Of a stretch of DNA of 55,427 nt, positions 749 through 54,662 are shown piece after piece. Position numbers and translations under genes: made by a program. The DNA lies in the NCBI GenBank assembly GCA_903854995.1, contig CAINXS010000052.1, positions 1 through 55,427 on the forward strand. The letters run 5' to 3'. The DNA comes from Candidatus Moraniibacteriota bacterium (GTDB lineage: Bacteria > Patescibacteriota > Minisyncoccia > Moranbacterales > UBA1568). The stretch's first letter is position 1. Each line of letters starts with the position of its first letter. The notes beneath the pieces were generated by a model that ran no database searches, was not told the origin of the DNA, and was given only the letters and a program-made list of their open reading frames with translations.

Positions 749-3736
749 CTACACCACCACGTTCACTAGCTTCCTGGGGACGACAATGATACGCTTGGGC
801 TCCTTGCCGTCAAGATACGACTTCACCTTGTCGCTGTCGAGCGCATGCGTTTTCAGTTCGTTCTCGCTGGCGTCGGCCGGAATTTCGAACGAGTCTCGCA
901 TCTTGCCGTTCACCTGTACGACGATTTTGACGGTATCGGACACGAGGTATGCCGGGTCAGCCTCGGGCCAGGCGGCCAACGAGACGGAGCCGGTATTCCC
1001 GATACCTTCCCAGAGTTCCTCCGCGATATGCGGCGCGAACGGCGACAGTATCCGCAGGAAGAGTCCGAACGATCGGCTTGAAATCGACACCTCCTTCTCC
1101 ATGGCATTCACGAGAATCATCATCGAACTGACCGCCGTATTGAATCGCATGGCCTCAATGTCCTCGGATACCTTCACGATTGTCTTGTGCAACAACGAAT
1201 CAATCGTTTTCACCTTCTGTTCCTGCTCCCCTGTTGTCAGTTGTGAGTTTTCAGTTGTCAGTCCGAATTCTTCCGTTGTGAGTTGTGAGTTGTGAGTTGT
1301 GAGTTTTTCTTGCAGTTTCCAGACCCGTTCCAAAAAGCGTCGCGATCCCACCAACCCGTTCTGCCCCCAGGCGATCGGCTGATCGAACGGCCCCATGAAC
1401 ATCTCGTAGATGCGGAGTGTATCCGCTCCGAAATCCGAAACGATATCGTCGGGATTGATGACGTTCCCCTTTGACTTCGACATCTTCACGCCGCCCTCCG
1501 CAAGGATCAATCCGTGCGAGGTTCGCTTCTGATACGGCTCGGACGTCGGCGCTACGCCGATGTCGAACAGGAACTTGTTCCAGAACCGTGAATACAGGAG
1601 GTGCAGCGTCGTATGCTCCATTCCCCCGTTGTACCAATCGACCGGCATATATCGCTTCAGCTTTTCCGGATCGGCAAGCGCCGAACCGTTCTTCGGATCG
1701 ATATAACGCAGGAAGTACCACGAGGAACCGGCCCAGTTCGGCATCGTGTCTGTCTCGCGTTTCGCGGGTCCGCCACAAGTCGGACAGGTCGTATTCACCC
1801 AACTCCCCATTTTTGCCAGCGGAGATTCGCCGGTATCGGTCGGACTGTATCCACCGTCGATCTCCGGCAGTTCGAGCGGGAGTTCCGACTCGGGAAGCGC
1901 GACGATGCCGCATTGCTCGCAGTGCACGACCGGAATCGGCTCGCCCCAATACCTCTGGCGGGAAAAGACCCAATCGCGAAGCTTGTACTTCACGACTTTT
2001 TTCCCGTTCCCGTCGGCTTCGAGTTTCGTTGATATCTTTTCCCGTGCCTGAGACGATGAAAGTCCGGAAAACTCATCGGAGTCCGTCAATGTCCCGTCGT
2101 CGACGAACGCTCCGTCTTTCCCGTCGAGACGCGCGAGCCAAAAATCAAGTTCCGCGCAGGTCATCTCCCGATTCCGTATCTCGTCCAAAGAGAGCCAGAG
2201 TATCGAATGCTTCGCAGCCTCTTCCTCGACGACCCTTTCACGGGTGTCGTCCTCCAACTCGAAGAGAAGCGCCGACGTATTGGCTATCCGATTCTCGTCC
2301 TTATGCGCCGCAAAATATTCGCTTTGGACCTTTCCCCCGAGCGTTTCGATATACTTCAAATTGGAATACCCGGTCTCCTCAAGCACCTCACGCATCGCCG
2401 CCCCCACGACATCCTCGCCGTTTTCCACGCCTCCGACGATGAACGTGGTCCAGGGATGATTTTTCCATTCCAGACAGAGAAATTTCCCGTCCTTCGGGTT
2501 CCTTACGAGCGCATGGATGGTATCTCGCTCGACGGTCTTCTTCCCTTCCCGGGGAGGATTCTTTTTGTCGGTCAGATGAGGCATCACGACCGTCCTGACC
2601 GGAAGGTCGTACTTTTTCGCGAACGCGTAATCACGCTCGTCATGTGCCGGGACTGCCATCACCGCTCCGGTCCCATAATCGCCGAGCACGTAATCCGCGA
2701 CAAATACCGGGACCGCCTCGCCGTTTATCGGGTTGACCGCCATCAGTCCTTCCAACCGCACGCCCGTTTTTTCCCTCCCTTCGGCCGTCCGGTCCATCTC
2801 GGTCTTCTTCTTGGTCTCTTTCAGATAAGCGGCAACTTCTTCCCAGTTCCTGATTCCTGATTCTTGATTCTCAGATTCCGTTCCTTCTTCATTCTTAATT
2901 CCTGATTCCTGATTCTTTACTAAAGGATGCTCCGGTGCGACCACTACGTAGCTGCAACCGAAAAGCGTATCGACCCGCGTCGTAAACACCTCGATGCTCC
3001 CTTGCCTGATTCCTGATTCCTGATTCTTTATTCCAAACTCAATTATCGTTCCCTCGCTCCGACCGATCCAGTTGCGTTGCTGTATCTTTATCTTTTCGAG
3101 ATAGTCCACCGTATCGAGGTCGTCGTGCAGCCGATCGGCATACCTCGTAATAGCGAGCATCCACTGCTCCTTCTCGCGTTTCTCGGTCTCATTCCCACAT
3201 CGTTCGCACTTTCCGTCGATCACTTCCTCGTTCGCCAAGCCGATCTTGCACGACGGGCACCAGTTGATCATCATCTTCGCCTTGTACGCGAGTCCCTTCT
3301 TCAACATCTGCAGGAAGATCCACTGCGTCCATTTGAAGTACGCCGGATCCGTGGTATTGATCTCGCGCGACCAATCGAACGAGAATCCGATACCTTTGAG
3401 TTGTCGGCGGAAATTGTCGGTATTCTGACGCGTAACTTCCCGGGGATGGATACCGGTCTTGATGGCGTAATTCTCGGTCGGGAGCCCGAACGCGTCCCAC
3501 CCGATCGGATACAGCACGTCGAACCCCTCCATTCGCCGTTTCCGCGCGACGATATCCATGGCGGTATTGCTCCGGATATGTCCGATATGCAGGCCCTGGC
3601 CGGACGGGTATGGGAACTCGATCAGGCAATAGTACTTCGGTTTTTCGGAATCGTCATGCACCAAAAACGCCCCTTGTTCCTCCCATTTCGCTTGCCATTT
3701 TCCCTCGATCGTTTTGGGGTCGTATCTCCCTTGCAT
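749..3736 (-). CDS. leuS: leucyl-tRNA synthetase with a nested Nudix domain and in-frame repeat insertions
   Basis: HIGH motif (PSGQGLHIGH), KMSKS, the CP1 editing region and YKLRDWVFSRQRYWGEPIP are present. The ATG at 3736 (MQGRYDPKTIEGKW) fits the homologous N-terminus. The ORF track start at 3757 is a GTG. Confidence 0.95.
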   Translation of the reverse strand: MQGRYDPKTIEGKWQAKWEEQGAFLVHDDSEKPKYYCLIEFPYPSGQGLHIGHIRSNTAMDIVARKRRMEGFDVLYPIGWDAFGLPTENYAIKTGIHPREVTRQNTDNFRRQLKGIGFSFDWSREINTTDPAYFKWTQWIFLQMLKKGLAYKAKMMINWCPSCKIGLANEEVIDGKCERCGNETEKREKEQWMLAITRYADRLHDDLDTVDYLEKIKIQQRNWIGRSEGTIIEFGIKNQESGIRQGSIEVFTTRVDTLFGCSYVVVAPEHPLVKNQESGIKNEEGTESENQESGIRNWEEVAAYLKETKKKTEMDRTAEGREKTGVRLEGLMAVNPINGEAVPVFVADYVLGDYGTGAVMAVPAHDERDYAFAKKYDLPVRTVVMPHLTDKKNPPREGKKTVERDTIHALVRNPKDGKFLCLEWKNHPWTTFIVGGVENGEDVVGAAMREVLEETGYSNLKYIETLGGKVQSEYFAAHKDENRIANTSALLFELEDDTRERVVEEEAAKHSILWLSLDEIRNREMTCAELDFWLARLDGKDGAFVDDGTLTDSDEFSGLSSSQAREKISTKLEADGNGKKVVKYKLRDWVFSRQRYWGEPIPVVHCEQCGIVALPESELPLELPEIDGGYSPTDTGESPLAKMGSWVNTTCPTCGGPAKRETDTMPNWAGSSWYFLRYIDPKNGSALADPEKLKRYMPVDWYNGGMEHTTLHLLYSRFWNKFLFDIGVAPTSEPYQKRTSHGLILAEGGVKMSKSKGNVINPDDIVSDFGADTLRIYEMFMGPFDQPIAWGQNGLVGSRRFLERVWKLQEKLTTHNSQLTTEEFGLTTENSQLTTGEQEQKVKTIDSLLHKTIVKVSEDIEAMRFNTAVSSMMILVNAMEKEVSISSRSFGLFLRILSPFAPHIAEELWEGIGNTGSVSLAAWPEADPAYLVSDTVKIVVQVNGKMRDSFEIPADASENELKTHALDSDKVKSYLDGKEPKRIIVVPRKLVNVVV
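1233..1306. repeat. GTTGTSA heptamer word block inside leuS coding sequence
   Basis: The DNA reads tgttgtcagttgtgagttttcagttgtcag...gttgtgagttgtgagttgtgagttgtgag. It is translated in frame as LTTHNSQLTTEEFGLTTENSQLTTGE. Confidence 0.9.
2123..2545 (-). other. Nudix hydrolase domain inserted inside LeuRS (about residues 405-545 of the ORF)
   Basis: A complete Nudix box, GGVENGEDVVGAAMREVLEETGY (GX5EX7REUXEEXGU), is encoded at about 2366-2434. The insert sits between FAKKYDLPV and the conserved GTLTDSDEFSGL...YKLRDW block. In E. coli LeuRS (recalled sequence) only a short linker of roughly 20 aa separates these two blocks. Confidence 0.85.
2849..2917. repeat. ATTCCTG/ATTCTTG heptamer word block inside leuS coding sequence
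   Basis: The cctgattcctgattcttgattctcagattc...attcctgattcctgattc stretch is translated as KNQESGIKNEEGTESENQESGIR. Confidence 0.9.
3008..3025. repeat. third in-frame ATTCCTGATTC copy in leuS (encodes NQESGI)
   Basis: The sequence ctgattcctgattcctgattc was read directly. Confidence 0.85.
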
Positions 3737-3781
3737 ATACGGAAAATCACGGTTCACCCACCCACTCTACCCTATCTACCG

Positions 3782-3855: not shown

Positions 3856-4302
3856 TCACTGCTGACCAGGGGCGATGAAGCCACCCTTGCTTCGGTGCTT
3901 TCGAGCGACATGCAGGCGGGCGAATTCTTTCTCCAGGGACGCGGCGACACGGGCGTATTCCTCATCATCAAGCAGGCTGCGGTCAGCCTTCAGTTCCTCG
4001 GCCTTCCTCCGCCCCTCCTCGGCCCGTTCGATGTCGATCTCTTCGGCGCGCTCCGCCGTATCGGCCAACACGGACAACACGTTTCCGTGCAGTTCCACGA
4101 ATCCTCCCGACGTCGCGAGACTCTCCGGCTCAGTATGTGCGTCTCTCCGGAAAAAGATCTCGCCGGAACGGAGCGAGCCTATGTACGGGATATGATCGGG
4201 CAAGACGGTGATTTCCCCGCCTTCCGCCGGAAGCGTCACCGAATAGACGTCTTCCTCGAGGACGAGTCGCTCCGGGGTAACTATCTTTAACTTTAGTAAC
4301 AT
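3856..4302 (-). CDS. atpC: F1 ATP synthase epsilon subunit
   Basis: MLLKLKIVTPERLVLEEDVYSVTLPAEGGEITVLPDHIP is typical of epsilon subunits. The gene is in the last position of the atp operon. Confidence 0.9.
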   Translation of the reverse strand: MLLKLKIVTPERLVLEEDVYSVTLPAEGGEITVLPDHIPYIGSLRSGEIFFRRDAHTEPESLATSGGFVELHGNVLSVLADTAERAEEIDIERAEEGRRKAEELKADRSLLDDEEYARVAASLEKEFARLHVARKHRSKGGFIAPGQQ

Positions 4303-4330
4303 ACAACTTACAACTTACAACTTACAACCG
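4303..4330. repeat. (ACAACTT)x3.5 tandem heptamers filling the whole spacer between the four-helix-bundle gene stop and the atpC start
   Basis: The sequence acaacttacaacttacaacttacaaccg was read directly. Confidence 0.95.
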
Positions 4331-4690
4331 TCATTTCACAAGTGTTTTCTTTAACCCACCAAGCTGATTTGAAATCCCATCTATCCGTTTCATCGCCTCA
4401 TCATACCGATCTTCTTGAACCATCCCGTTTAATTTCAACGCATCCATTGCCGCCATTGTCTCATATAGGGAACGGAGCGAAATATTCAGAAAACGATTCA
4501 GTTCCTTATCAGTCGTTTTTCCGCTTCCTTCCGCGATATTAAGCGCTACCGACAAGGCGGCACGGATCATCTGGCTACCTATTTCGAAACGGAATTCTTT
4601 CGGTAGATCCTTAACAATTTTCAGAACAAGGGAAAAGAGCTCCTGCGAATCATTGTATACTTTCCATTTCCTGAACCGAAATTTCTCCAT
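4331..4690 (-). CDS. four-helix-bundle protein (23S rRNA intervening-sequence protein / DGR Avd family)
   Basis: The 119-aa product carries KWKVY...QMIRAALSVALNIAEGSGKTTDKELNRFLNISLRSLYE, characteristic of this family. Confidence 0.85.
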   Translation of the reverse strand: MEKFRFRKWKVYNDSQELFSLVLKIVKDLPKEFRFEIGSQMIRAALSVALNIAEGSGKTTDKELNRFLNISLRSLYETMAAMDALKLNGMVQEDRYDEAMKRIDGISNQLGGLKKTLVK

Positions 4691-4730
4691 ATCATTTACT
4701 GCTTCGAATCACCCCCCGTTCCCAATTCCC

Positions 4731-6268
<1,538 letters not shown>

Positions 6269-32556: not shown

Positions 32557-33270
32557 TCACCTTCCAAGCACGTATCCGAGGAACAGTTTCCGTATCCTGC
32601 CGACTTCGGCGAGATCGGCGGCGCCGACACGAAGTTTGAGCACGGAACGAAGCCGGTTTCCCAGAAATAGACGGATAAGTTTCACCGCATTCTCACCGAC
32701 GGCGACCGATTCCCTTCCCGCATGCTCTTCCGAAACGATGCCGCCCGCCGCCGGACTGAAAAAACACCGACTTCCGCGACCGAGCGTGTTTCCGGAAACC
32801 GCGCATGTATCCGCCTCGATCCGGTATCCGAGCTCATCAAGAAACTTCACGAAAAACGCCTCGGTCAGAAGTGTCGTCGCAGCGCCGCCTCCGGCCACAC
32901 CGTCGAGAAGCGTCAGATATTCGTGAAGGAGCGAAAATAACGCCGGATCCGGTTGTTCGAGCCCGACAATCGAATCGAATTCCGCTGCCGCAGCAAGGGC
33001 GAGCGACAACGTCGCATACTCTGATCGGATACGCTGAAACGATTCCTCGGCGATCGCGCCGGCGACCCGCCCGTTTCCTTTCCCGCGAACGATCGTCACA
33101 TCCGAGAGGGTCAGGGTTTCGAGCGCCGCGGCGAGCTTCGCCTGCGATTTACGCACCCCGATCGCCTTGGCCTGCACTTTTCCCAGTTCCTTGGTATAGA
33201 ACGTGTAAAGCCGATCGGTCTCACCGACCTCCCGTTTCCTTAGCGTGATGGCGGTCAGGCGGAGTTCCAT
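32557..33270 (-). CDS. recO: DNA repair protein RecO
   Basis: The start MELRLTAITLRKREVGETDRLYTFYT is RecO-like. The ATG at 33270 is preferred. Confidence 0.85.
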   Translation of the reverse strand: MELRLTAITLRKREVGETDRLYTFYTKELGKVQAKAIGVRKSQAKLAAALETLTLSDVTIVRGKGNGRVAGAIAEESFQRIRSEYATLSLALAAAAEFDSIVGLEQPDPALFSLLHEYLTLLDGVAGGGAATTLLTEAFFVKFLDELGYRIEADTCAVSGNTLGRGSRCFFSPAAGGIVSEEHAGRESVAVGENAVKLIRLFLGNRLRSVLKLRVGAADLAEVGRIRKLFLGYVLGR

Positions 33271-33273
33271 TTC

Positions 33274-33318
33274 GGGAAGAATGAGGAATAATGAATCAGG
33301 AATAATGAATGAGAAAGG
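33274..33318. repeat. GGAATAATGAATCAGG word block between the Nudix stop and the recO start
   Basis: The sequence gggaagaatgaggaataatgaatcaggaataatgaatgagaaagg was read directly. Confidence 0.8.
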
Positions 33319-33328
33319 CCCGACCAGG

Positions 33329-33892
33329 TCAAAGCAGCCCGAGAAAATCGAGCGCAAGGTACCCCATTTCGACATCGGTCAGCCTTCCCGAACGGAGATG
33401 TTCCCGGAATTCCGGAAGTGACATGAGCACGACTTCGAGTTCTTCGCCGTTGTCTTCTGGCTTCGGGTCGGCAACCTTCACACAACCAGTCGCTACGAAC
33501 GCATTTTTTTTGTAAGTCATGTATGCACCGGGAAACACCTTGGTGACATACTCGATCTTCCCGCGATACCCCGTCTCCTCCAGGAGTTCCCGCGCCATAC
33601 CCTCTTCGCGACTCTCCCCGTCCGCAACTCCTCCTCCCGGCATTTCCAGCAGCACTTCCCCTGGACCCGGACGGAACTGTCGGACCAGAATCACCTCCTT
33701 CGATTCGGTCAGCGCAAGACAACACACCGGGTCGTTGTCGGTACTCAGGTAGAAATCCGTTTCGGTCCCATGCGGAAGCCGGTACGTCCGTCGCTCGATT
33801 CCGCGGCCGTATTTCCGGAACACCTCTTCCCGGGAAAGCTCCTCCCATGGCTGGATAACGTCTTGCATATATTCAATCGTTAGACTTTTCAC
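33329..33892 (-). CDS. Nudix hydrolase (ADP-ribose pyrophosphatase-like)
   Basis: Nudix box GGGVADGESREEGMARELLEETGY. The start is either the GTG at 33892 or the ATG at 33868. Confidence 0.88.
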   Translation of the reverse strand: MKSLTIEYMQDVIQPWEELSREEVFRKYGRGIERRTYRLPHGTETDFYLSTDNDPVCCLALTESKEVILVRQFRPGPGEVLLEMPGGGVADGESREEGMARELLEETGYRGKIEYVTKVFPGAYMTYKKNAFVATGCVKVADPKPEDNGEELEVVLMSLPEFREHLRSGRLTDVEMGYLALDFLGLL

Positions 33893-34048: not shown

Positions 34049-37000
34049 CTATCGGTTCTTCTTGAGCGAGAACGCGAACGGTTCACCTTCGATGTCTGTC
34101 GTGTCGCGATAGTCGGCGTCCGCGATATCGCCGCGGACAATCTCCGTCGCGAGCGTCTCGCGCGCGATCTCGTCGCCGAAGCCGGAGAGATTCTCCGCCG
34201 TATCGCCGTCGAACACCTTCTCCTTGCCGAGGATACCGAGCGTAATCCGATCGCTCACCTCGAACCCAGCCTTCTTCCGTCCTTCCTGAATAGCGCGAAT
34301 GATTTCGCGCGCCTCGCCTTCGAGCTTGAGCGCTTCATCAATTTCCAAATCTAGACATACCATATCCGCTTCATCTCCCTTTATCCAGGCAATACATTTC
34401 CATCCTTGCTTCTCCGCTTCGATGTCGGTCAACAATCCGGTCCGCTCAACCGACTTTACGTTTAGTTCTTCACGTATAATTTCATCGTATACGTCCGACA
34501 ACCCATCGGTTATGACTATCTTTCGCAACGGCTGGCGGACTTTCATTCCTGAATCCGCCCTCATCTGAAGTCCGAGACTTACGATGACGCGGACGGCATG
34601 CATCTCCTTACCCAGCTTCTCATCAACCAATTTCTCCTTCACCTCCGGCCAGTCGGCAAGATGCACCGACTCCGGGATATTCCTGGATTCCGGGTCAACC
34701 GCGCATTCGCCGGTCAAAAGTCCGGAATGACAATTCATAAGGTTCCGATAGATTTCCTCAGCGACAAACGGCGTGAACGGCGCCATAAGTTTCGAAAGCG
34801 TGACGAGCACTTCGTACAGCGTCGCGTATGCATCGTCCTTGTCGCTATCGTTCTCATTTTTCCAGAAGCGTTTCCGGTTCCGGCGGATATACCAGTTCGA
34901 GAGATCGTCAACGAACGGCATGAAGAGACGCGTCGCCTTCTGCAGGTCATATGCCTCCATGGCCGCGTCGATATCGCGGATCAACACCTGCAATTCCGAA
35001 AGGATCCATCGGTCAAGGATATCGATCGATTGTTCACGATTCTTCTTCGGATCCCATCCATCGATCGAGGCGTACGTCGTGAAGAACAAATACGAGTTCC
35101 ACAACATTCGGAACAGGTTGCGCGTCGATTCCGACAGCTCGCGCTCCGAAAAGTTCAGGTTCTCCGCGGATACGATCGGCGAGGAAAGCAGATACAGTCG
35201 GAGTGCGTCCGATCCGTGCTTTTCCAAGACTTCCATCGGATCCGGATAGTTCTTCAGCTTCTTGGACATCTTCAGACCGTCCTCCGCGAGCACGATACCG
35301 TTCACGGTGACGTTCTTGTACGCGACACTGTCACGAAGTCCCGTCGCCATGACATGCAGGTAGTAGAACCAGGCGCGTGTCTGGTCGATGCCCTCGGCAA
35401 TGAAGTCGGCCGGGAACCGCGAATCGAACGATTCCTTCCCCTCGAACGGATAGTGCGCCTGCGCGTACGGCATCGACCCCGAGTCGAACCACGTATCGAG
35501 CACATCCGGAATCCGTCGCATGACGCCACCGCACTTTTCGCACGGCACGGTTATCGGATCGACGACGTGCTTATGTAAATCGGCGACGACCTGTCCACTC
35601 GCCTGTTCCAGTTCGGCGACCGATCCGAACACGCGCATCTCGCCACACTCACATTTCCAGATCGGCATGACGGACGCCCAGTACCGCTGCCGACTAATGG
35701 ACCAGTCGCGCGCACCCTCGAGCCACTTCCCGAATCGGCCGGCCCTCACGTGCTCCGGCGACCAATGGATATCCTTCGCGAGTCCGATCGCTCGTTCTTT
35801 CAGATCCGTCACCCGGATGAACCACGAACTCGTCGCGTAATTGAGGAGCGGTGTATCGCACCGCCAGCAGTGCGGGTAGCTGTGTTCGAACTTCTCCTTG
35901 GAAAACAGCAGGTTTTCTTTTGCGAGGTATCTGATTATTTGAATATCCGCATACTGCGGGTCATCTTTGTCCTTAACCTTGATACCTACCCACAGTGTAT
36001 CAGTGCTCTCTTTCGTATCAGTAAAAAGCCGATAAAGATCTTCATTATGATAGACAATATCTTCATTCAACCGCCCGTCGATACCTACATGCTGTACAAA
36101 AGGAAGGTTATATTTCTTCCCGAGCGCCATATCGTCCTCGCCGAATGCCGGCGCGATATGCACCACTCCCGTCCCGTCCTCGGTCGTCACGAAATCCGCC
36201 GCATAAATCTTGTATGCAGTTCCGTCTTCATCAAACTTTTCTCTTTCCTTTGCTCCTTCGAAAATTTTCTTTGACCTGTCACTAAGCCGTTGTCTGACTG
36301 CAAACTGAGGAGCGATCGATTCATTGGATCCCTGTTGTTTTAAGGACCTCGGCGTTTTCTTATCGGTAATTATATCTTTCAGATAACCAAACAGCGGCTT
36401 GTAAGATTTCGTTACAAGTTTTTCTCCTAAAAACTCGTCAATAACTCTCGGTTCAGAAGGCGGAACTTCATTAGGCCCTATTGCTTTTGCAGACGGAAAG
36501 AGCGTGTCTTTATTGCGCTCATAAATTGATTTGGCGAGTATGAAATACTCAGGTTGTCCCTTTGCATTATCATAACTTACTTTCACATACTCGATATCCT
36601 TCCCCATGGCCAAAGCAACGTTCCCAGGAAGCGTCCACGGAGTCGTCGTCCACGCAAGCACATAGGTACCCGGCTCGTCGACGAGTTCGAATTTCGCGAT
36701 GACCGAAAGGTCCTTCACATCCTTGTATCCCTCGCTCACTTCCTGCTGCGAAAGCGTCGTCTCGCATCGCGGGCAGATATGCATCGAGCGATAATCCTCG
36801 TAAACAAGCCCTTTGTCCCAAAGCTCCTTGAACACCCACCAGACCGACTCCATGTAGTCGCGGTCCATCGTCTTGTAAGCGTTCTCCATATCCGCCCAGC
36901 GGCCGAACCGGTGCATGACCTTCTTCCAATCCTCCGCATACTCGAGCACCTTGGACCGGCAGATGTCATTGAACTTCGCCACGCCGAGCTCCTCGATCTC

Positions 37001-37324
37001 CTTCTTGTGTCTGATGCCGAGCTCCTTTTCCGCGATGTTCTCGATCGGCAATCCGTGGCAGTCCCAGCCCCACTTCCGCTCGACCCGATACCCACGCATC
37101 GTGAAATAGCGCGGCACCGCATCCTTGATCGCGCTCGCCACGATATGCCCGTAATGTGGTGTCCCCGTCGCGAACGGAGGCCCGTCGAAAAACACGAAAT
37201 TACCCTTTGGCGCGGCCTTTTCGACGGACTTCCTAAAGATATCGTTCGCGTCCCAATACGCGAGGATTTCTTCCTCCATTTTCGGGAAATCGGATTTGGG
37301 GTCGATTTTTTTTAATGGGGTCAT
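34049..37324 (-). CDS. ileS: isoleucyl-tRNA synthetase with in-frame insertions
   Basis: HYGH, KMSKK, the editing-domain TGVVHIAPAFGEDD block and the HCWRC zinc motif are present. The ATG at 37324 is preferred. Confidence 0.95.
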   Translation of the reverse strand: MTPLKKIDPKSDFPKMEEEILAYWDANDIFRKSVEKAAPKGNFVFFDGPPFATGTPHYGHIVASAIKDAVPRYFTMRGYRVERKWGWDCHGLPIENIAEKELGIRHKKEIEELGVAKFNDICRSKVLEYAEDWKKVMHRFGRWADMENAYKTMDRDYMESVWWVFKELWDKGLVYEDYRSMHICPRCETTLSQQEVSEGYKDVKDLSVIAKFELVDEPGTYVLAWTTTPWTLPGNVALAMGKDIEYVKVSYDNAKGQPEYFILAKSIYERNKDTLFPSAKAIGPNEVPPSEPRVIDEFLGEKLVTKSYKPLFGYLKDIITDKKTPRSLKQQGSNESIAPQFAVRQRLSDRSKKIFEGAKEREKFDEDGTAYKIYAADFVTTEDGTGVVHIAPAFGEDDMALGKKYNLPFVQHVGIDGRLNEDIVYHNEDLYRLFTDTKESTDTLWVGIKVKDKDDPQYADIQIIRYLAKENLLFSKEKFEHSYPHCWRCDTPLLNYATSSWFIRVTDLKERAIGLAKDIHWSPEHVRAGRFGKWLEGARDWSISRQRYWASVMPIWKCECGEMRVFGSVAELEQASGQVVADLHKHVVDPITVPCEKCGGVMRRIPDVLDTWFDSGSMPYAQAHYPFEGKESFDSRFPADFIAEGIDQTRAWFYYLHVMATGLRDSVAYKNVTVNGIVLAEDGLKMSKKLKNYPDPMEVLEKHGSDALRLYLLSSPIVSAENLNFSERELSESTRNLFRMLWNSYLFFTTYASIDGWDPKKNREQSIDILDRWILSELQVLIRDIDAAMEAYDLQKATRLFMPFVDDLSNWYIRRNRKRFWKNENDSDKDDAYATLYEVLVTLSKLMAPFTPFVAEEIYRNLMNCHSGLLTGECAVDPESRNIPESVHLADWPEVKEKLVDEKLGKEMHAVRVIVSLGLQMRADSGMKVRQPLRKIVITDGLSDVYDEIIREELNVKSVERTGLLTDIEAEKQGWKCIAWIKGDEADMVCLDLEIDEALKLEGEAREIIRAIQEGRKKAGFEVSDRITLGILGKEKVFDGDTAENLSGFGDEIARETLATEIVRGDIADADYRDTTDIEGEPFAFSLKKNR
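34672..34731. mobile_element. family 2 MITE fragment inserted in frame in ileS
   Basis: Its reverse complement, GTCATTCCGGACTTTTGACCGGCGAATGCGCGGTTGACCCGGAATCC, matches 15026-15072. It is translated as CHSGLLTGECAVDPESRNIP just before the conserved SVHLADWP. Confidence 0.8.
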
Positions 37325-37403
37325 ATGGATATATGGATATATTGTTGAATGGTTGAATGGAGAAACCGCCGAATGGCTACATTGCTCAACGGTCAATTGT
37401 CAA
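37325..37403. repeat. 8-mer word blocks (ATATGGAT x2, TTGAATGG x2 and related) between the four-helix-bundle stop and the ileS start
   Basis: The sequence atatggatatatggatatattgttgaatggttgaatgg...gaatggctacattgctcaacggtcaattgtcaatc was read directly. Confidence 0.8.
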
Positions 37404-53468: not shown

Positions 53469-53584
53469 TGTTGTCAGTTGTTTGTTGTCAGTTGTTTGTT
53501 CCCCGTTGTCAGTTGTAAGTTGTGAGTTGTAAGTTCGTAATCGTCAGTCATTCTTCCGTTGTAAGTTGTCAGTTGTTTGTTATC
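53469..53584. repeat. long GTTGT-type word block from the MITE to the mnmA stop
   Basis: The sequence ttgtcagttgtttgttgtcagttgtttgttccccgttgtcagttgtaagttgtgagttgtaagttcg...gttgtaagttgtcagttgtttgttatc was read directly. Confidence 0.9.
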
Positions 53585-54662
53585 AGTTTTCCGAGATAAT
53601 CCCCGAACCGAGGCACTCGTCCCCACGATAAAACGCTGCGATCTGCCCGGCCGCGATGCCGGTATCACCATTCGCGATCGTAACGTGTCCGCAACGTTCC
53701 CGAAGGGACCCCATTGGGGCCGACTGGATCGAAAGCGTGCATGGATATTCCTGCACTCCGTGACGGAGTTTCACCGTCAGTCGATCGTCCACGTCCGGTG
53801 CGTCCGAGATCCATGAAAGACCGTCGACATGGAATTCCGATCGCGCCGTTTCCGAGCTGCGATACGCATTCGATATATAAACGATATTCTTCGCAGTATC
53901 CTTTCCGGTCACGTACCAGGGGCCGCCGGAAAGCCCTATTCCCTTGCGCTGGCCGATCGTATAGAACCAAAAGCCCTGGTGTTTTCCGAGCGTCTCACCG
54001 GTCTTCGTGTCGACGATATCCCCTTCACGCGTCCCGAGTTTCTCCTCGAGGAACCGATCAAACGGGACTTTCCCGAGGAAACAGATCCCCTGACTGTCCT
54101 TCCGTTCCGCACTTGAAAGTCCATACGTTCGCGCGAGTTCCCGCACCTCGTCCTTGCGATACCCACCGATCGGAAACATCGCCTTCACCAACTGATCCTG
54201 CCGAAGCCGGGAGAGAAAGTAGGTCTGGTCTTTATGTTCGTCGGCCGAACGCAGGAGCCGAGCCTTGCCGTCGCGGACCTCCGTCTGTGCATAGTGCCCC
54301 GTCGCCACATGGTCAAACTCGGCCCCGTACTCCTCGACGAACGCCCCAAATTTGATGAGCGTATTACAAAACACGTCCGGATTCGGCGTCCGCCCCGCTT
54401 TGGCCTCCGCGATCACGTACGACACGATCCGCTCGTGGTATTCTTTCTGGAACGGCACGACCGAGAGCGGTGCCCCCACTTCCTCGCAGACCGCGCGGAC
54501 ATATCTCAGATCTTCCTCCCACGGACATTCCCCCAGGAATGACAATTCGTCCTCAAGCCATATCTTGAGATAGAACGCGGTAATATCGTGCCCCGCGTCC
54601 TTCAGAAGACGCAGAGCGACCGAACTATCCACCCCGCCGGAAATAAGCATTGCAACTTTCAT
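53583..54662 (-). CDS. mnmA: tRNA-specific 2-thiouridylase
   Basis: The PP-loop MLISGGVDSS is present, with full-length MnmA similarity. Confidence 0.95.
   Translation of the reverse strand: MKVAMLISGGVDSSVALRLLKDAGHDITAFYLKIWLEDELSFLGECPWEEDLRYVRAVCEEVGAPLSVVPFQKEYHERIVSYVIAEAKAGRTPNPDVFCNTLIKFGAFVEEYGAEFDHVATGHYAQTEVRDGKARLLRSADEHKDQTYFLSRLRQDQLVKAMFPIGGYRKDEVRELARTYGLSSAERKDSQGICFLGKVPFDRFLEEKLGTREGDIVDTKTGETLGKHQGFWFYTIGQRKGIGLSGGPWYVTGKDTAKNIVYISNAYRSSETARSEFHVDGLSWISDAPDVDDRLTVKLRHGVQEYPCTLSIQSAPMGSLRERCGHVTIANGDTGIAAGQIAAFYRGDECLGSGIISEN

Follow-up and report, generated by a model that had tools for sequence, protein, structure and literature searches.

The stretch analysed here, contig CAINXS010000052.1 of the Candidatus Moraniibacteriota assembly GCA_903854995.1 (55,427 nucleotides, hereafter the window), carries on its minus strand at 749..3757 an uninterrupted open reading frame (ORF) of 1002 aa with a GTG start, leuS, which encodes a bacterial-type leucyl-tRNA synthetase (LeuRS). 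Within this LeuRS lies, in frame, a complete Nudix fold, an α/β/α-sandwich of about 151 net residues, which Pfam, structure prediction and alignments delimit to residues 392-549 (2111..2584, minus; hereafter site A). The host is readily recognised, as its product scores 1005.6 bits with TIGR00396 (leuS_bact, NCBIfam) against a cut-off of 548.4, is matched by solved LeuRS structures down to E 1e-225 in a search of the Protein Data Bank (PDB), and holds the class I motifs HIGH at residues 57-60 and KMSKS at 758-762 of the translation. The Pfam NUDIX model (PF00293) in turn matches residues 412-529 of the full protein with 46.5 bits (E 4.8e-12; gathering score 21.1), and the excised insert by itself with 49.9 bits.

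An inserted Nudix domain in the editing region of LeuRS

By direct reading, the metal-binding catalytic motif of the insert, the Nudix box GGVENGEDVVGAAMREVLEETGY, occupies residues 442-464 (2366..2434, minus) and agrees with the consensus GX5EX7REUXEEXGU at every defined position. Translation of 2117..2584 (minus) reads MPHLTDKKNPP...GGVENGEDVVGAAMREVLEETGY...HKDENR...ARLDGK, and in an alignment of 87 sequences an X-loop with the family signature [YF][FY]AxHKxENR falls at residues 481-490 (2288..2317, minus). When the Nudix domain is modelled alone with AlphaFold2 (AF2) it reaches a predicted local distance difference test score (pLDDT) of 92 and a predicted template modelling score (pTM) of 0.84, and Foldseek gives a probability of 1.0 to many solved Nudix structures, with template modelling (TM) scores up to 0.76/0.82. 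The GC content of the insert (0.54-0.55) is the same as that of the remainder of leuS, with no compositional break. The original prediction, made from the letters of the DNA alone, had proposed a complete Nudix domain with a canonical box in frame inside LeuRS, made by the cell as a chimera, and had held that the want of a significant Nudix profile match would speak against it. The intact ORF, the exact fit of the box, the hidden Markov model match, the AF2 and Foldseek results and the recurrence of the architecture described below all uphold this proposal.

The alignments place the insertion point within the connective polypeptide 1 (CP1) editing domain and not beyond its end, where the original prediction had put it. 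The N-terminal part of CP1 (residues 228-391; 2585..3076, minus) is a match to PF13603, which covers residues 228-399 with its profile positions 1-148 of 185 (195 bits), so that the profile is still incomplete when the insert begins. In alignment with Thermus thermophilus LeuRS, residues 11-391 correspond to 3-362 and residues 549-766 to 375-592, and residues 392-548 (about 157 aa) stand in place of the 12-residue Thermus loop 363-374. The conserved block from GTLTDSDEFSG... to KYKLRDW, which follows the insert, matches Thermus LeuRS from residue 375 on; with the boundaries of Thermus CP1 at 224-417, these residues still belong to CP1. The C-terminal part of the editing domain is thus residues 550-592, up to the KYKLRDW junction (1982..2110, minus), and it is kept in orthologues that lack the Nudix domain. 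Alignment with LeuRS orthologues, which the original prediction had proposed, sets the boundaries of the insert at 2111..2584, and the architecture is shared by hundreds of related species; the span first given, 2123-2545 (residues 405-545), lies inside the domain but misses its first β-strand.

The full-length AF2 model (pLDDT 87, pTM 0.79) can be superposed on 4aq7, the aminoacylation conformation of E. coli LeuRS, with a TMt of 0.86 and a root-mean-square deviation of 4.3 Å. In this model the Nudix domain is preceded by the strand VRTVV and followed by another, short strand, and we therefore read the insertion as lying at the tip of a β-hairpin of CP1. The Nudix blocks and both junctions score pLDDT 82-95 in the same model, and thus give no sign of a floppy tether. 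Both editing motifs of the leuS product, TTRVDT (Thr-rich, 259-264) and HDERD (372-376), are intact, and all 87 homologues share T259, T260, R261, D263, T264, H372, D373, R375 and D376; the Nudix domain is thus an addition to the editing site and no substitute for it.

Conservation and selection on the insert

Conservation was counted over the 87 aligned site-A homologues, in all of which the Nudix-domain residues R411, G442, G443, E457, E460, E461, G463, K486, N489, R490 and E513 are invariant. R456 (86/87), E448 (85/87) and H485 (84/87) are nearly so, W436 and W521 are kept in 90% or more, and position 481, which lies 17 residues after the Nudix box and is Tyr in the window, is always aromatic (Tyr in 52/87, Phe in 35/87). 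These residues combine into the signature R-x30-GGx5Ex7REx2EExG[YF]-x16-[YF][FY]AxHKxENR...E, by which the insert belongs to a distinct Nudix family. The ratio of nonsynonymous to synonymous substitution rates (dN/dS), computed against the loci L004 and L005, is 0.07-0.10 for the Nudix segment, 0.11-0.15 for CP1 and 0.19-0.22 for the rest of LeuRS, and on this measure purifying selection on the Nudix domain is at least as strong as on the LeuRS core. Such a pattern of conservation and selection points to an active enzyme rather than to a decaying or purely structural insert, and the domain is therefore probably functional.

Identity between the window leuS and L004/L005 is mosaic, at 83% in the Nudix segment, 76-78% in CP1 and 63-64% in the rest of LeuRS, and two types of LeuRS core can be told apart by motif (HIGHIRSNT/KMSKSKGN versus HVGHPKGY/KMSKRWGN). 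Together these two observations suggest recombination or replacement of LeuRS modules among lineages of the candidate phyla radiation (CPR).

Distribution and inheritance

To chart the family we took a single genome for each GTDB species and searched it with an alignment of the Nudix domain alone and the [YF][FY]AxHKxENR-type signature; at least 530 confirmed stretches encode the family. The best 80 of these all come from metagenome-assembled genomes (MAGs) of Patescibacteria/CPR type (Moranii-, Taylor-, Uhr-, Wildermuth-, Nomura-, Zambryski-, Berkel- and Paceibacteria) and all hold a Patescibacteria-type LeuRS; several of these MAGs bear evidently wrong submitter labels. A single copy at site A is found in 74 of the best 80 stretches, or in 75/81 loci when the further locus L001 is added, and among the 120 best full-length LeuRS relatives PF00293 is present in 117, some of them on contigs of more than 1 Mb. 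The domain of one Ca. Moraniibacteriota MAG (L002) is 99% identical to that of the window, and the window's own LeuRS-Nudix protein is recorded on 8 contigs. We regard the insert as an ancient feature of LeuRS in the Patescibacteria that has been passed on mostly by vertical descent.

A lineage that uses genetic code 25 has this architecture as well. On the 39-kb contig of L001 (JGI 3300077097) both the LeuRS-Nudix gene and a split gene for ribosomal protein L2 carry in-frame TGA codons, one of which aligns with a Gly of the homologues, and this marks L001 as a code-25 organism (Gracilibacteria/Absconditabacteria-like) that was annotated with code 11.

The Nudix domain can also be absent. Two proteins about 85% identical to the window LeuRS, P0168 (806 aa) and P0169 (833 aa), have no Nudix domain and read ...VVS-GGEGDxPF-TDDG... 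at the insert site, a linker of about 9 residues, for a net difference of 151 codons. Their genes lie in the same setting as that of the window, in the order atpG-atpD-23S_rRNA_IVP-atpC-leuS on the longer contig (L083, P0169) and atpC-leuS-RNase_T on the shorter one (L084, P0168). Considering that the insert is widespread and that its divergence roughly tracks that of its host, the absence is probably a recent and precise loss. It also indicates that the Nudix domain is dispensable for aminoacylation and is an accessory module.

Second sites, other hosts and free-standing relatives

An exhaustive profile search over 1.84 billion cluster representatives returned 131 clusters at E <= 1e-30 and 414 at E <= 1e-10, and from the 150 best family representatives 46 multi-domain proteins were scanned individually. 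All 46 are LeuRS or LeuRS fragments, except for two fragments without a recognisable host domain (P0080 and P0125) and one prolyl-tRNA synthetase (ProRS). This ProRS, P0132 (643 aa), carries the Nudix domain, with HKDVNR, between its HGTP_anticodon (295-379) and ProRS-C_1 (574-642) domains, and by its domain order is a second, unrelated aminoacyl-tRNA synthetase (aaRS) host of the family. An arginyl-tRNA synthetase had appeared as a possible third host through a DALR_1 flag on P0062; this protein joins the N-terminal two-thirds of a LeuRS with its Nudix domain to the C-terminal ~90 residues of a DALR domain, and we regard it rather as a chimeric or rearranged call.

LeuRS itself offers the family a second site (site B), which lies just before CP1 between ...YAxRLLxDLD and WPESIKExQRNWIGRSEG and is occupied in 6 of the best 80 loci (L008, L009, L011, L012, L013 and L021). 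Two of these six hold a tandem pair at site B, and two hold one copy at each site. Some second copies carry a degenerate box (e.g. AEIIEE in L008), and LeuRS representatives with three Nudix copies exist. Members of the family also occur free-standing, as proteins of about 155-200 aa that form their own clade, share the N-terminal strand and HKxENR with the insert and have no RNA-binding extension. Their genes lie far from any aaRS gene, in one case on a 696-kb contig, and their neighbours (Peptidase_M14 genes, another Nudix and hypothetical proteins) gave no functional clue.

Moreover, the Nudix family is not alone in its use of this scaffold. Ser_hydrolase (PF06821), HAD_2, Ham1p_like, DUF559 and PDDEXK_3 domains are found inserted in CPR LeuRS, mostly near site B or after ...PIPxxHC, as is a second Nudix domain unrelated to the insert family; examples are the proteins P0195, P0045, P0155, P0037, P0070, P0088, P0043 and P0050 and the loci L005, L007, L012, L021 and L056. 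In the most extreme case (P0195, on a 563-kb contig) a LeuRS of 1722 aa holds three Nudix domains together with a Ser_hydrolase and a HAD domain. As judged from these domain architectures, the LeuRS of the CPR is a general hot-spot for insertions. For the insert of L005 an ASCH-like identity had been guessed; Pfam found no family for it.

The remainder of leuS and its neighbourhood

The annotated GTG is likely not the true start of leuS. Close homologues begin at MQGRY or MEGRY and residues 1-7 have an AF2 pLDDT below 50, so that the ATG at 3734-3736 (Met8) is the likelier initiation codon. Downstream of the KYKLRDW junction, residues 593-1002 with the stop codon (749..1981, minus) supply the second half of the catalytic core, the KMSKS loop and the anticodon-binding and C-terminal domains, where Pfam finds tRNA-synt_1 and, at 850-965, Anticodon_1. 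The leucine-specific domain is absent from the window LeuRS (at about residues 755-760), as Thermus residues 593-636 have no counterpart in the alignment; P0168 and P0169 likewise lack it and have no replacement for it. All motifs and domains considered, the host is predicted to be a canonical, bacterial and editing-competent LeuRS of a Moranbacteria-like CPR bacterium, made as one polypeptide. Two plus-strand ORFs over the leuS region (1471..2442 and 2207..2860) were treated as antisense shadows, because it is the minus-strand frame that carries a conserved protein under selection.

Within this essential gene we also observed in-frame heptanucleotide tandem repeats (window 1233-1305, 2847-2915 and 3005-3034). 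On the coding strand (AATCAGG)n is read as NQESGI(R/K) and (CACAACT)-like repeats as HNSQLTT. Residues 287-298 and 823-841, the only loops that AF2 models with low confidence and as disordered, are encoded by these repeats. Repeat length varies among relatives that are 94-99% identical, and similar repeats of 7, 14 or 21 nt occur in intergenic DNA of the window (4298-4328, 4714-4801 and 53469-53588). Just downstream of leuS lies an N-terminally truncated ORF for an IS200-like Y1 transposase (162-500, minus; PF01797 positions 29-121), and between atpD and atpC a gene for a 23S_rRNA_IVP four-helix bundle (4331-4690, minus), which has the same position in L083.

Substrate clues and a possible role

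Several observations bear on what the Nudix domain might hydrolyse. Among characterised structures the top TM scores go to Ap4A/Ap6A hydrolases (Aquifex 3i7u, 0.69/0.80, and Thermus Ndx1) and to E. coli RppH (0.69/0.69), and human NUDT2 is third by E-value among the Foldseek matches. Profile-to-PDB matches are weak (E ~1e-5) and mainly cover the Nudix box; they include AvrM14, the lupin and Aquifex Ap4A hydrolases, Dcp2 and NudC, with the lupin Ap4A hydrolase, Dcp2 and the decapping effector AvrM14 ranking highest. A Tyr about 17 residues after the Nudix box correlates with hydrolases of adenine dinucleoside polyphosphates (ApnA) (Dunn 1999, cited in PMC5389931), and the aromatic residue at +17 in all 87 sequences is in line with this marker, which is a correlative one. 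The marker of ADP-ribose pyrophosphatases (ADPRases) is a Pro about 16 residues after the box, and that of NADH pyrophosphatases the motif SQPWPFPxS (PMC5389931). The four commonest residues at position +16 of the 87 sequences are E, H, K and N, with no P among them, and SQPWPFPxS is absent from the insert. The window also holds a separate free-standing Nudix gene (33329-33892, minus; 187 aa) with weak, sub-threshold matches of NudE/ADP-ribose pyrophosphatase type, by which an ADP-ribose role is probably already covered. This gene lies directly downstream of that for an isoleucyl-tRNA synthetase (IleRS; 34049-37396, minus; 1115 aa, DUF5915) and upstream of recO (32557-33375, minus), an adjacency that may be another aaRS-Nudix neighbourhood or a coincidence.

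On these grounds we tentatively favour, as a possibility short of an assignment, that the insert is an ApnA/RppH-type pyrophosphohydrolase that would act on adenine dinucleoside polyphosphates or on related polyphosphate or capped ends. Synthetases make Ap4A- and Ap3A-type products from the enzyme-bound adenylate and ATP or ADP. The Nudix domain would then be an active Mg2+-dependent pyrophosphohydrolase, a third autonomous active site tethered to LeuRS, with these by-products, or closely related 5'-polyphosphate or Np4-capped ends, as its most likely substrates; tethering to an abundant and constitutive aaRS would put clean-up or signal termination at the source, in genomes with very few regulators. 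The original prediction had suggested that the insert clears adenylates or ApnA, which may be a plausible role. The aminoacyl-adenylate itself is unlikely to be a Nudix substrate, since it is an acyl-phosphate anhydride and not a nucleoside diphosphate linked to another moiety (NDP-X). Nesting of the same family in the ProRS P0132 gives mild support to a link with aaRSs.

A number of findings weigh against this reading. All curated Nudix subfamily models stay below their cut-offs; RppH (NF001938) scores best, with 23.5 bits against 116 in a local match to the Nudix box only, and at the sequence level the insert falls outside the ApnA hydrolase families both by the NCBIfam cut-offs and in the profile search of the PDB (E ~1e-5). 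The best structural match, 2azw (TM 0.76/0.82, E 1.3e-09 in Foldseek), is uncharacterised. Position +17 is Phe and not Tyr in 40% of members, and RppH-type RNA pyrophosphohydrolases share the aromatic residue at this position. The syntenic orthologues without the domain and the free-standing members show that there is no obligatory coupling to LeuRS, and the unrelated inserts in CPR LeuRS (Ser_hydrolase, HAD, Ham1, DUF559, PDDEXK_3) fit a generally permissive scaffold better than a specific LeuRS-Nudix mechanism.

These last points lead to what we consider a doubtful but by no means negligible alternative, in which the insert is a hitch-hiking house-cleaning enzyme or metabolite pyrophosphatase that acts, for instance, on oxidised or non-canonical (d)NTPs or on another NDP-X, is unrelated to leucylation and uses LeuRS as a mere constitutive carrier. 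It would account for a scaffold that bears Ham1/ITPase-like (P0045, P0028), HAD_2 (P0155, P0140, P0195) and many Ser_hydrolase domains, several of the inserts being house-cleaning enzymes, along with the nuclease-like DUF559 and PDDEXK_3, and that in the 1722-aa LeuRS joins three Nudix domains to a Ser_hydrolase and a HAD domain; the family's free-standing occurrence, its clean loss and the MutT-like label that one source gives to fragments would fit as well. Against it, the recognisable hosts among the 46 scanned proteins are all LeuRS apart from one ProRS, with no non-aaRS host seen; within LeuRS the domain moreover occupies two different sites and may be multiplied, and both its X-loop aromatic and the nearest characterised folds favour an ApnA/RppH-type over a MutT-type enzyme. 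It is unlikely, in our view, that the substrate is instead RNA, with an RppH/Dcp2-like module on CP1 acting on the 5' end of tRNA(Leu) or on other RNAs (5'-triphosphate, Np4N- or NAD-type caps). CP1 binds the tRNA acceptor end in known LeuRS structures, the other host, ProRS, also binds tRNA, and the TM score of E. coli RppH to the model, the presence of Dcp2, AvrM14 and NudC among the best PDB profile matches and the rank of RppH as best local NCBIfam match all point in that direction. These matches are nevertheless weak and centred on the Nudix box, RppH stays far below its cut-off, the free-standing members have no extension for RNA binding, and the 5' end that RNase P leaves on a mature tRNA carries a monophosphate.

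A catalytic role for the domain could itself be questioned, as non-enzymatic Nudix homologues exist (PMC5389931). The insert might accordingly serve as a structural, tRNA-binding or protein-interaction module, for example one that offsets the missing leucine-specific domain, and the junctions modelled as rigid and the degenerate box of some second copies, such as that of L008, could be cited for this. We hold it to be very unlikely, as the REx2EE metal ligands and the invariant residues that flank them are strictly kept in the 87 homologues, which would be unexpected of a purely structural element, and as the orthologues without the Nudix domain do without the leucine-specific domain too, with nothing in its place. 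We give virtually no credence to the idea that the insert is a product of chimeric assembly, or that it is a mobile or intein-like sequence which is cut out on the way to the mature protein. A search with the insert alone had returned only short ORFs (153-308 aa) joining PF13603 and PF00293, which could suggest fragments, and nuclease-like DUF559 and PDDEXK_3 inserts sit near the second site of some LeuRS. The short ORFs are, however, pieces of full LeuRS genes broken by TGA codons of code 25, or come from short contigs, intact full-length examples are abundant, and identical junctions recur in hundreds of genomes from unrelated samples; the original prediction had itself named chimerism as what would undo it, and the same architecture on many independent contigs gives no sign of it. 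A Pfam scan of the LeuRS protein finds only aaRS and NUDIX domains and no Hint/intein domain, the insert folds as a compact Nudix domain with confident junctions, its base composition does not break from that of the gene, and the coding frame is under purifying selection, so that this explanation is effectively refuted already.

One could go further and picture a LeuRS with three active sites, in which a Nudix site held rigidly on the editing domain would receive ApnA, perhaps species derived from non-cognate adenylate, or the end of the bound tRNA, directly from the synthetic or editing site. We rate this as decidedly unlikely. Were it true, it would amount to a new nucleotide-level proofreading or signal-termination step in an aaRS, and to the same solution having been reached independently at the second LeuRS site and in ProRS.

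Significance and comparison with known systems

Synthetases with appended or inserted editing or accessory domains are well known, and it is mainly by synthetases that the Ap4A-type alarmones of the cell are made. Full-text literature searches brought up no account of an aaRS with a Nudix domain, and a comprehensive review of the Nudix clan makes no mention of tRNA (PMC5389931). The Pfam domains are already in the databases, where NCBI names many LeuRS-Nudix proteins only 'class I tRNA ligase family protein', so that as far as we have seen the data are public but the feature is undescribed in the literature. A catalytic-type Nudix hydrolase nested in a synthetase would be a new kind of aaRS accessory domain. 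Far from being a single case, it is conserved across a major bacterial radiation. Should the ApnA reading hold, a hydrolase on the source enzyme may explain how ApnA is controlled or disposed of in very reduced genomes. Nature also supplies the controls: LeuRS orthologues that have or lack the domain, variants with several copies of it, and family members that stand alone. The annotation of CPR LeuRS is affected as well, and a wider pattern of inserted hydrolase domains is exposed.

Compared with the ApnA/RppH (NudH) group (NUDT2, aq_158 3i7u, Ndx1 1vc8 and E. coli RppH), the insert is similar in being a single Nudix domain of about 130-160 residues with the GX5EX7REUXEEXGU box, an aromatic residue at +17, a Foldseek probability of 1.0 and TM scores of 0.6-0.8. 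It differs in its 14-26% identity, in its own invariant HKxENR and conserved N-terminal strand (…VER…), and in being nested inside another enzyme where the others are free-standing, and its activity is a predicted one. The best structural match over the whole domain is the MutT/Nudix protein 2azw of Enterococcus faecalis, to which profile positions 14-139 align, although with only 16% identity, and 2azw is free-standing and comes from a Firmicute. Comparable in design are NadM-Nudix (NMN adenylyltransferase/ADP-ribose pyrophosphatase, PRK05379), where an enzyme that uses ATP for adenylyl transfer is likewise joined to a hydrolase, and IleRS-GNAT (NF040702), an aaRS with an extra enzyme domain; models of both appeared as weak or named NCBIfam entries for the LeuRS-Nudix query. 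In both the extra domain is appended at a terminus and is not known to be nested in an editing domain, and in contrast to the ADP-ribose enzyme NadM-Nudix our family lacks the ADPRase Pro marker. Similar to canonical LeuRS (Thermus 1h3n/2byt and E. coli 4aq7/4arc), the window protein retains HIGH, KMSKS, a CP1 with the Thr-rich motif and the catalytic Asp, the Zn-binding Cys motifs and the anticodon-binding and C-terminal domains. It departs from them in having two repeat-encoded loops, in having no leucine-specific domain, and in carrying a 157-residue Nudix domain where they have a 12-residue hairpin loop of CP1.

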